Made by a program: the position numbers and the translations under genes
Assembly: GCA_035640005.1 (NCBI GenBank)
Contig: DASQWY010000169.1
Coordinates: 1-43,346, forward strand
Reading direction: 5' to 3'
Length of the DNA stretch: 43,346 nucleotides
Source: Actinomycetes bacterium
GTDB lineage: Bacteria; Actinomycetota; CALGFH01
Shown here: positions 36,506-38,929 of the stretch, in pieces
Layout: each line of letters opens with the position of its first letter
Position numbering within the stretch: the stretch's first letter is position 1
The notes under the pieces: generated by a model
Seen by the model: the letters and a program-made list of their open reading frames with translations, nothing else
The model's database searches: none
What the model was told of the DNA's origin: nothing

Positions 36506-38929
36506 ATGGCCATCCGCCCGGTTGCCGACGGCGGCTCGCGGGCCAGCGCTTCCCCAGCCTACGAGCGCGTCCCACCGCACAACGTCGAGGCCGAGGAGTC
36601 GGTCCTCGGCTCGATGCTGCTCTCCAAGGACGCGATCGCCGAGGTCCTGGAGCTGCTGCACGAGGAGGACTTCTACCGACCGGCCCACCGGACCGTGTTC
36701 CGCTCCGTCCTCGACCTGTACTCGCACGGCCAGCCGGTCGACGCGGTCACGGTCGCCGAGGAGCTGCGCCGCAACGGCACCCTCGCCGACGTCGGCGGCG
36801 CGCCGTTCCTGCACACCCTGGTCGCCGGGGTGCCCACCGCGGCCAACGCCGGGCACTACGCCCGCATCGTCAAGGAGGCGGGCGTCCTCCGCCGGCTGAT
36901 CGACGCCGGCACCCGCATCGTCCAGCTCGGCTACGAGACCCCGCAGGAGGTGGAGCGGGCGGTCGACGTCGCCGAGGCGCTCGTCTACCAGGTCGCCCAG
37001 GGCCGGGTCAGCGAGGACTACCAGAGCCTGAAGGACGTGCTCACCGGCACCCTGGAGGCGATCGAGCGCCTCCACAACGACCGCCGCGAGCTGACCGGCA
37101 TCCCCACGGGCTTCGCCGAGCTCGACCGCCTCACCTCCGGCCTCCAGAACTCCAACCTGGTCATCGTCGCGGCCAGACCGGCCGTGGGGAAGGCGCTGGC
37201 CCTCGACACGCCGCTCCCCACCCCGACCGGCTGGACGACCATGGGCGAGGTGGCGGTCGGCGACCAGCTGATCGGCGCGGACGGCAGGCCGGCGACCGTG
37301 GTCGCGGCGACCGACGTTATGCACGGCCGGCCTTGCTACGAGGTCCAGTTCTCGGACGGGACGGTCGTCGTCGCCGACGCGCAACACCAGTGGCTGACCG
37401 AGACCCGGGCGGCGCGCAAGTCGGCGTGGGCGGCCGCCCGCGGCTACAACCGCTCCCGGACGCAGCGGACCTTCCCTTCGGTCAAGACCACCGAGGAGCT
37501 GCTCGCGACACTTCGCTGCAACGGCGTGGAGCGGCGGCTGAACCACGCCGTGGTCAACACCAGGCCGCTCGACCTCCCGGCGCAAGAGCTGCCGCTGCCG
37601 CCCTACGCGCTCGGGGTGTGGCTGGGCGACGGCCATGCGGCGAGCGCGAGGATCACCACCGCCGACCCCGAGATCATCGTCCACCTGGAGGCGGACGGCC
37701 TGCAGGTCGTCCCCCACGGTCGGCTGCTCCACACCCTGCGCCTGCCCGAGCGGTCTCACGGCACGGTGCAGGCGATGCTGCACAGCCTCGGTGTCCTGGA
37801 CGACAAGCACATCCCCGCGAGCTACCTGCGGGCCTCGGAGGCGCAGCGACGGTCGCTCCTCGCCGGGTTGCTCGACACCGACGGGACCGTCACCGGCAGC
37901 GGAGCGGTGCAGTTCAGCGTGACCTCGCGGCGGCTCGCCAAGGACACACGTGAACTGATCGTGAGCCTCGGGTACCGCTGCTCCCTTGCCAGGAAGCGGG
38001 TCAAGGGCCGGACGGCGGCCTCCTCGACCGCGTTCACGCTCACGTTCTCGACGGCCGACGAGGTGTTCCGGCTGGAGCGGAAGCGGCTGATGCACAAGGA
38101 GCGGAAGGGCCCCGGCCGCACCGGCAAGCGCCTGATCACGGACGTGCGCCCCGTCCCCAGCGTGCCGGTGCGCTGCGTCGAGGTCGACAGCCCCGACCAT
38201 CTCTACCTCGCCAGCCGGTCGATGGTCCCCACCCACAACTCGACCCTCGGCCTGGACATCGCTCGGCACGCGTCGGTGCGGGCGGGCGTGCCGACGGTGG
38301 TGTTCTCGCTGGAGATGAGCCGAACCGAGCTGGTGCAGCGGCTCATGTGCGCGGAGTGCACGGTCGACATGCAGCGGCTGCGGACCGGGCGGATGGAGGA
38401 GTCGGACTGGGCGCGGCTGACCCGCTCGCTCGGCCGGCTGGCCGACGCGCCCCTGTTCATCGACGACTCGCCCGGCATCACCATGATGGAGATCCGTGCC
38501 AAGTGCCGCCGCCTCAAGCAGCGCCACGGGCTCGGCCTGGTGATCGTCGACTACCTCCAGCTGATGCAGCCGACCAAGCGGTTCGAGAACCGCCAGCAGG
38601 AGGTGAGCGAGATCTCCCGCGGCCTCAAGCTGCTCGCCAAGGAGCTGGACATCCCGGTGATCGCCGTCTCCCAGCTGTCCCGCCAGCCCGAGTCCCGCGC
38701 CGACAAGAAGCCCATGCTGTCCGACCTGCGTGAGAGCGGTGCGCTCGAGCAGGACGCCGACATGGTGCTGTTCATCTACCGGGACGACCTCTACGACGCC
38801 GAGTCGCCCCGCAAGGGCGAGGCCGACCTGATCCTCGCCAAGCACCGCAACGGCCCGACCGACACGGTGGTGGTCACCTTCCAGGGCCAGTACTCCCGCT
38901 TCGCCGCCATGGCCGCCAGAAGCCTCTGA
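36506..38929 (+). CDS. dnaB: Replicative DNA helicase DnaB precursor (458-aa helicase interrupted by a 349-aa intein)
   Basis: N-terminal PPHNVEAEESVLGSML. Walker A AARPAVGK is split from STLGLDIA. Walker B LVIVDYLQLM; QLSRQ; arginine-finger region. 807 aa in total. Confidence 0.95.
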   Translation: MAIRPVADGGSRASASPAYERVPPHNVEAEESVLGSMLLSKDAIAEVLELLHEEDFYRPAHRTVFRSVLDLYSHGQPVDAVTVAEELRRNGTLADVGGAPFLHTLVAGVPTAANAGHYARIVKEAGVLRRLIDAGTRIVQLGYETPQEVERAVDVAEALVYQVAQGRVSEDYQSLKDVLTGTLEAIERLHNDRRELTGIPTGFAELDRLTSGLQNSNLVIVAARPAVGKALALDTPLPTPTGWTTMGEVAVGDQLIGADGRPATVVAATDVMHGRPCYEVQFSDGTVVVADAQHQWLTETRAARKSAWAAARGYNRSRTQRTFPSVKTTEELLATLRCNGVERRLNHAVVNTRPLDLPAQELPLPPYALGVWLGDGHAASARITTADPEIIVHLEADGLQVVPHGRLLHTLRLPERSHGTVQAMLHSLGVLDDKHIPASYLRASEAQRRSLLAGLLDTDGTVTGSGAVQFSVTSRRLAKDTRELIVSLGYRCSLARKRVKGRTAASSTAFTLTFSTADEVFRLERKRLMHKERKGPGRTGKRLITDVRPVPSVPVRCVEVDSPDHLYLASRSMVPTHNSTLGLDIARHASVRAGVPTVVFSLEMSRTELVQRLMCAECTVDMQRLRTGRMEESDWARLTRSLGRLADAPLFIDDSPGITMMEIRAKCRRLKQRHGLGLVIVDYLQLMQPTKRFENRQQEVSEISRGLKLLAKELDIPVIAVSQLSRQPESRADKKPMLSDLRESGALEQDADMVLFIYRDDLYDAESPRKGEADLILAKHRNGPTDTVVVTFQGQYSRFAAMAARSL
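37193..38239 (+). mobile_element. Intein in the DnaB P-loop, class 3 signature, with LAGLIDADG homing endonuclease domain
   Basis: Inserted between GK and S of the Walker A. First residue is Ala (ALALDTP). Block B DAQHQW; block F VRCVEVDSPDHLYLA; block G MVPTHN followed by Ser +1. Endonuclease motifs LGVWLGDGHA and LLAGLLDTDGTV. Confidence 0.85.

Follow-up and report, generated by a model that had tools for sequence, protein, structure and literature searches.

A probable orthologue of the class 3 DnaB-b intein, with a nested LAGLIDADG endonuclease domain, in the Walker A motif of an actinomycete DnaB helicase

The locus studied here raises the questions of what divides the Walker A motif (P-loop) of a replicative DNA helicase, how the inserted element may be removed from the protein, and whether it is still mobile. 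The helicase is encoded by a dnaB gene on contig DASQWY010000169.1 of an Actinomycetes bacterium (GenBank assembly GCA_035640005.1), a metagenome-assembled genome (MAG). The whole contig stretch of 43,346 nucleotides was analyzed and is referred to as the window; all of its features given below lie on the forward strand. With a probability of roughly 90%, we assign the insertion to the known class 3 inteins of DnaB site b (DnaB-b inteins), as an orthologue that would comprise a HINT splicing domain and a nested homing endonuclease (HEN) domain with two LAGLIDADG motifs. As such the finding is an ordinary one, as this intein allele is well characterized and very widespread in actinobacteria.

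The dnaB precursor frame (positions 36506–38929, 807 amino acids) was taken from the open reading frame list; it matched the N-terminal domain of DnaB and a DnaB_C domain in two parts in Pfam as well as TIGR00665 (DnaB) in NCBIfam. The N-extein (36506–37192) breaks off within the Walker A motif, after AARPAVGK, and the C-extein (38240–38929) begins with Ser+1 (codon TCG, 38240–38242), which is the Walker A Ser; each half contributes 229 residues of a normal DnaB. In frame between the Walker A Lys and Ser lies the intein of 349 amino acids (37193–38239, dnaB residues 230–578), and the junctions read AARPAVGK/ALALDTP...MVPTHN/STLGLD (slashes denote intein borders here and below). Once the insert is removed, the Walker A motif is continuous and DnaB has 458 residues. 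These borders agree to the base with those given in a preliminary description of the sequence, which had quoted the P-loop junctions in the same form. The H4 motif (SDLRESGALEQDAD, 38720–38767), which harbors sites a and c, is uninterrupted. Upstream of dnaB are ssb, rpsR, and rplI; the order ssb-rpsR-rplI-dnaB is the usual chromosomal arrangement in actinobacteria.

The HINT domain is divided into an N-terminal half with blocks A and B (37193–37417) and a C-terminal half with blocks F and G (38126–38239), in which 55 of 71 and 27 of 35 residues, respectively, are identical to those of the Mycobacterium smegmatis DnaBi1 structure 6BS8. Intein position 1 is Ala (GCG, 37193–37195) and provides no Cys, Ser, or Thr nucleophile; Ala is also the first residue in all 85 homologous inteins extracted (84 in DnaB proteins of bacteria and one in a DnaB-like helicase encoded by a phage), each of which is inserted at GK/S(T) and none of which contains a stop codon. 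The N-terminal half carries Cys48 (37334–37336) and, in the DAQHQW motif (37376–37393), the DxxH-x-W residues Asp62, His65, and Trp67; Trp67 (B:12) follows two residues after the B:10 His in the order His65-Gln-Trp67. The C-terminal half contains Cys328 at position 4 of block F (F:4; 38174–38176) within VRCVEV of the longer VPVRCVEV, Tyr338, and PTHN/S (38228–38242) with Thr347 at position 5 of block G (G:5) followed by His348-Asn349. Trp at B:12, Cys at F:4, and the Thr-His-Asn terminus were present in 87/87 aligned inteins, and the full set of A1, C48, D62, H65, W67, C328, T347, H348, and N349 was invariant in the window intein and the 85 homologues. Ser+1 likewise accords with the definition of class 3 for the residue following the intein.

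A phmmer search against the PDB retrieved 6RIX (E = 4.8e-45), 6RIY (E = 2.4e-44), and 6BS8 (E = 1.5e-43), all of them class 3 DnaB inteins. Each match consisted of two stretches, intein residues 1–76 and 315–349, with 82/106 residues identical to 6BS8 (77%) and 83/105 to 6RIX, and W67, C328, and T347 aligned column for column with W67, C118, and T137 of M. smegmatis DnaBi1. Class 3 inteins were defined from residue mutants of the mycobacteriophage Bethlehem intein, in which C320 is absolutely required for splicing (PMC2807308). BLASTP alignment of the window intein with the Bethlehem intein (34% identity, E = 5e-63) extended over the full length including the endonuclease and paired Trp67 with Trp67, Cys328 with Cys320, and Thr347 with Thr339, with H65-G-W67 opposite His65-Gln-Trp67. 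The Trp-Cys-Thr (WCT) residues thus occupy the diagnostic positions in the alignments to both references, and the class 3 signature proposed earlier for this intein (Ala1, Trp-Cys-Thr, Ser+1) is borne out by residues that were mutated or tested in the Bethlehem intein and in DnaBi1.

By homology to the Bethlehem intein and DnaBi1, Ala1 would be unable to start splicing, and Cys328 would instead attack the Lys(−1)-Ala1 bond, giving a branched intermediate with a block F thioester. The N-extein would then be passed to Ser+1 by transesterification, cyclization of Asn349 would release the intein, and an O-to-N shift would restore GK-ST, so that DnaB could bind ATP only afterwards. Asp62, His65, and Trp67 of the variant block B together with Thr347 are expected to assist the reaction. 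A direct attack of Ser+1 on the N-terminal junction without a block F thioester, as in class 2 (KlbA-like) inteins, would also suit the first residue, as class 2 inteins likewise start with Ala (PMC2807308). We consider this route very unlikely: class 2 inteins lack the WCT residues and have Asp at F:4, whereas the window intein has W, C, and T, none of which varies among its homologues, the homologous Bethlehem intein depends on its F:4 Cys as mentioned, and Cys118 has been described as the initiating nucleophile of DnaBi1 (PMC6195587).

The earlier description had taken the Bethlehem intein, as a DnaB intein, for the prototype. The homology stands, but among characterized inteins the closest are the mini-inteins at DnaB site b of mycobacteria, namely M. 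smegmatis DnaBi1 (6BS8, 6OWN), the Mycobacterium leprae DnaB intein, and Mycobacterium chimaera DnaB-1 (6RIX, 6RIY), which share with the window intein the host protein and the Walker A Lys/Ser insertion site. DnaBi1 is a class 3 intein at P-loop site b with Ser as +1 nucleophile, the triplet Trp67/Cys118/Thr137, and a DxxH block B with Asp62 and His65, and it is a natural mini-intein (PMC6195587). The ALALDTPLPTP start, DxxH-x-W, VPVRCVEVD, and the VPTHN end are common to the window and mycobacterial DnaB-b inteins, which are 77–79% identical across the aligned splicing-domain stretches. They differ in size: DnaBi1 has 139 amino acids and the solved M. chimaera chains have 145–146, compared with 349 in the window, where a region of ~240 residues with the LAGLIDADG motifs (residues 76–311) stands in place of the ~33-residue linker of DnaBi1. 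A further difference is the second intein at site a of M. smegmatis DnaB, whereas the H4 motif is uninterrupted in the window. The mycobacterial DnaB-b inteins studied so far have no HEN (PMC5050341, PMC6195587). Full-size DnaB-b inteins with a HEN were observed in Mycolicibacterium frederiksbergense (L027, 417 amino acids) and in a Mycobacterium sp. MAG (L051, 360 amino acids); L051 lacks the second catalytic Asp.

In M. smegmatis DnaBi1, a disulfide between Cys48 and Cys118 blocks splicing and acts as a redox trap (PMC6195587), and C118, V119, and Y128 coordinate zinc (PMC7360933). The window equivalents of the zinc ligands are Cys328, Val329, and Tyr338. Cys48 was invariant in all DnaB-b-type inteins examined, and the Bethlehem intein has Thr at this position. 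Because Cys48, Cys118 (Cys328), and Tyr128 (Tyr338) are conserved between DnaBi1 and the window intein, splicing of the latter is probably sensitive to oxidants and zinc as well. Conditional splicing as a switch is the published model for this intein allele, and it is plausible for the window intein by analogy.

The nested HEN domain with its linkers (residues 76–311, 37418–38125) was recognized by Pfam as LAGLIDADG_3 (30.3 bits, cutoff 22.5) and Hom_end. It contains LAGLIDADG motif 1 (LGVWLGDGHA, 37610–37639) with catalytic Asp146, block D (KHIP, 37805–37816) with Lys205, and LAGLIDADG motif 2 (LLAGLLDTDGTV, 37856–37891) with catalytic Asp230. Of the 87 aligned inteins, 73 have the Lys of block D and all have its Pro; we take Lys205 to be equivalent to the block D Lys of PI-SceI. 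An AlphaFold2 (AF2) model built from a 46-sequence alignment reached a predicted local distance difference test score (pLDDT) of 94.1 and a predicted template modeling score (pTM) of 0.91, and has a pseudo-dimeric LAGLIDADG fold inserted into the HINT domain. Foldseek gave PI-SceI as best match (E = 5e-20, TM 0.73–0.76), followed by the TliVMA intein, PI-PfuI, and I-DmoI, and placed the splicing domain of the model on 6BS8 with a TMt of 0.88. PI-SceI, the VMA1 intein, combines HINT and a nested LAGLIDADG domain in the same manner but is a class 1 intein (Cys1, Asp at F:4) of 454 amino acids with only 16–18% identity. Pairwise ratios of nonsynonymous to synonymous substitutions (dN/dS) among family members were 0.09–0.2 for HINT and 0.22–0.32 for the HEN, values to be read with a probably compressed dS at ~95% GC in third codon positions (GC3). 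The HEN is thus under purifying selection, although somewhat relaxed.

The Bethlehem intein has been named TerL1-c and reported to have an active endonuclease (PMC5050341). Contrary to the location in DnaB assumed earlier, this intein is encoded within the gene for the terminase large subunit (gp11), which immediately precedes the portal gene (AY500153, L089, 7260–9971), and its flanks VSQDQ/.../TKNTF are the published ones (PMC2807308). The region of the DnaB-like helicase (AY500153, 30000–52000) was also considered; tblastn found nothing there, the published flank peptides were absent from it, and the annotated DnaB-like helicase (gp62, 273 amino acids) has no intein. Both the Bethlehem and the window intein have two LAGLIDADG motifs, a KHIP block D, and WCT at identical columns. 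The Bethlehem intein differs in Pro1 instead of Ala1, Ser instead of Asp at B:7, Thr+1 instead of Ser+1, the lack of Cys48, and flanks that are not the GK/S/T Walker A sequence. Other phage homologues were 36–41% identical, among them one from Brevibacterium phage Rousseau, where it splits the P-loop of a DnaB-like helicase (GEGAGK/ALALDTP...PTHN/TTF, 41%), and many in mycobacteriophage terminases. Because the HEN of full-size DnaB-b inteins is homologous to that of the phage terminase intein, the comparison supports the proposed descent of class 3 inteins of phages and hosts from one ancestor.

A 63-residue module with two CxxC...C(x2–3)C motifs (CVVCG...TCGRSCGG ... CPDCG...CQACR) follows residue 187 (approximately window position 37753) in 15 of the 85 homologues (L005, L006, L012, L024, L025, L027, L033, L037, L042, L048, L052, L080, L082, L085, and L086). 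It is located between the two LAGLIDADG halves; others have half-modules, and the window copy has none. The module looks like a double zinc ribbon, and a Pfam scan returned "Double zinc ribbon" (DZR_2) at 16.8 bits, below the cutoff of 27. A literature search on zinc ribbons in LAGLIDADG inteins retrieved nothing relevant and no account of the module, and in a single-sequence AF2 model of the 412-residue L005 intein (pLDDT 34) the module was not placed. In the maximum-likelihood tree, the full module was scattered across at least 11 clades, and near-identical inteins differed in its presence, e.g., L045 versus L080 and L085 (94–96% identical). An ancestral module that was deleted repeatedly would be the economical reading of this pattern, and the window HEN would be a reduced form.

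These findings bear on whether the element can still move. Both catalytic acids were kept in 67/86 inteins compared, including that of the window, and one was lost in 19/86. The earlier statement that both LAGLIDADG motifs are intact holds for Asp146, Asp230, and Lys205, but the suggestion that the element may be capable of homing is weakened, because the window HEN has lost a module that its sister inteins kept. The loss need not inactivate the enzyme, since the DNA-cutting Bethlehem HEN is also devoid of the module (PMC5050341). That the window HEN can still cut an empty dnaB allele has a roughly even chance.

Several points weigh against our assignment, some of them against an active endonuclease in particular. 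The window intein is sister (99/84 support) to two 412-residue full-module inteins, L005 and L006, which are 85% identical to it and carry the module that it lacks. The close relative L004 (G004) has no Asp146 and belongs to the 19 inteins with a lost catalytic acid, a proportion that shows HEN erosion to be under way in the lineage. GC3 was 0.95 in the intein and 0.97 in the exteins, and the overall GC content of the intein likewise matched that of the exteins, which indicates a long residence and not a recent invasion. Splicing mechanism, redox and zinc sensitivity, and endonuclease activity are all derived from homologues with 34–77% identity. Finally, a second, intein-free dnaB in the source genome is conceivable, although unlikely, in view of the state of the MAG (780 contigs, 88.7% complete, 6.5% contamination).

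The same incompleteness and contamination speak for an explanation of the window dnaB as a dead gene or a binning or assembly artefact with a splicing-dead intein, the functional intein-free gene lying elsewhere. We consider this explanation very unlikely as well. The dnaB frame is open over 807 codons with all catalytic residues invariant, the splicing domain has a dN/dS of 0.1–0.2, and the exteins are 84–88% identical to those of relatives in a conserved ssb-rpsR-rplI-dnaB context. Moreover, a single dnaB was detected in the MAG and no second one at E ≤ 1e-20, and the only dnaB detected in the relatives has the same arrangement. The dependence of DnaB on splicing, as proposed in the preliminary description, is consistent with this apparent single copy.

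The intein tree largely followed taxonomy, and intein identity tracked extein identity within the family; a plot of intein versus extein identity, inspected for recent horizontal transfer, had no outliers involving the window intein. The match in GC and GC3 and the taxonomic tree are the reasons why a long residence is preferred over a recent event. A recent phage-derived insertion was considered and appears unlikely, given the lack of a GC or GC3 contrast and the chromosomal surroundings with ribosomal-protein genes and ssb. The same vertical pattern favors the idea that the splicing domain works while the HEN is an inactive, vertically inherited remnant kept only because efficient splicing requires a folded insert, and that the intein is immobile and on its way to a mini-intein like DnaBi1. 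Such a fate would also fit the loss of the Cys-rich module relative to the sister inteins, the repeated and independent losses of module and catalytic Asp across the tree, the host-like GC3, and the HEN-less state of the characterized mycobacterial DnaB-b inteins (PMC5050341, PMC6195587). Against it stand both catalytic Asp residues and the block D Lys kept in the window HEN, the HEN dN/dS of 0.22–0.32 typical of purifying selection, the activity of the Bethlehem HEN without the module (PMC5050341), and the coexistence of empty, class 1, and class 3 alleles within single genera of the family, which suggests continuing turnover of the site. On balance, an inert HEN has about the same chance of being right as of being wrong.

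The alleles of site b in genomes of the same family bear on this suggested turnover. Class 3 inteins of 354–357 amino acids occupy the site in G004, G010, and G012, with one CxxC finger in G010 and none in G004 and G012; G009, G011, and G017 contain class 3 inteins with the ~63-residue insertion (412 amino acids in G011 and G017), and in G005 a class 3 intein at site b is accompanied by a second intein at site a. The site is empty in G001, G002, and G007, which belong to sister genera of the same family and read AARPAVGK/STLGLD or AARPAVGK/SALGLD; G007 has a site-a intein instead. In G008 and G013, an unrelated Cys1 intein with a VYDL block F is inserted at the same codon boundary. Genus g8 contained occupied and empty alleles, and genus g4 contained class 3 and class 1 occupants. 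The class 1-type intein of genus g4 (L092, G013:C144, 209–2944; L093, G008:C170) has ~450 amino acids, reads AARPAVGK/.../STMGLD, and combines Cys1, VYDLTI in block F, and VVHN/S with Pfam matches to Intein_splicing and LAGLIDADG_3. In a comparison of this intein with the class 3 intein, no match was obtained at E ≤ 0.001, and two apparently unrelated inteins occupy one homing site within genus g4. A still active endonuclease, a P-loop site in live turnover in this family, and a class 3 HEN that repeatedly sheds a double zinc-ribbon-like DNA-binding module might be parts of one process, a proposal we regard as tentative and rather doubtful as a whole.

A protein search restricted to the intein region gave at least 8000 matches, of which the best 120 were 79–98% identical and nearly all were "replicative DNA helicases" of ~800 amino acids with LAGLIDADG_3; at least 522 stretches in species-representative genomes encode a relative. 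Among the named organisms listed were Nocardia, Rhodococcus, Nocardioides, Kineococcus, Cellulosimicrobium, Nonomuraea, Saccharothrix, Microbacterium, and M. frederiksbergense. Full-size DnaB-b inteins of other Actinomycetes were 48–86% identical to that of the window and had the class 3 residues, insertion site, and HEN family in common with it; they ranged from 291 to 418 amino acids. The element ranks among the most common inteins of actinobacteria. Of all bacterial proteins, DnaB hosts inteins most often, its site b is a known P-loop hotspot, and full-size DnaB-b entries are presumably contained in InBase. An earlier census put the number of actinobacterial DnaB inteins at 202 and reported the P-loop location of site b (PMC4760082).

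Four homologues bore the labels Acidobacteriaceae (L031), Verrucomicrobia (L063), Melainabacteria (L083), and Cyanobacteriota (L024, on a Rhodococcus record), yet they nested in actinobacterial clades and had actinobacterial-type DnaB flanks. MAG mis-binning or mislabeling, not cross-phylum transfer, is the most likely cause. A further intein with the W/C/T signature was observed in PhoH of the MAG that contains the window (G000:C348:16246–17301, reverse strand; L094, 1456–3504, reverse strand). It is 38% identical to the DnaB intein, has a LAGLIDADG domain of its own, and reads ...APLAYMRGR/SQPYSSMVLTPSGF...AEHLW...ETLCIQV...LVTHN/TLNDALIVLDEAQN; by alignment it appears to start with Ser and not with a non-nucleophilic residue. 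Mycobacteria are known to have class 3 inteins in PhoH (PMC6195587).

Crystal structures of class 3 DnaB-b inteins and in vivo studies of their control by redox state, zinc, chlorine, and heat already exist, so that the window intein offers little discovery value; its value lies in annotation. The Pfam model Intein_splicing (PF14890) did not detect the class 3 splicing domain of the window, although it does recognize the class 1 intein that occupies site b in G013. Automatic domain annotation therefore sees only "LAGLIDADG" within DnaB and the intein is overlooked; the gene should be annotated as an intein-containing dnaB and not as an 807-residue helicase. Full-size DnaB-b inteins such as this one also show what the mycobacterial mini-inteins have lost. 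If the endonuclease is indeed active and the site in turnover, these actinobacteria would provide a natural series for intein competition at one homing site and for the stepwise decay of a HEN toward the mycobacterial mini-inteins.

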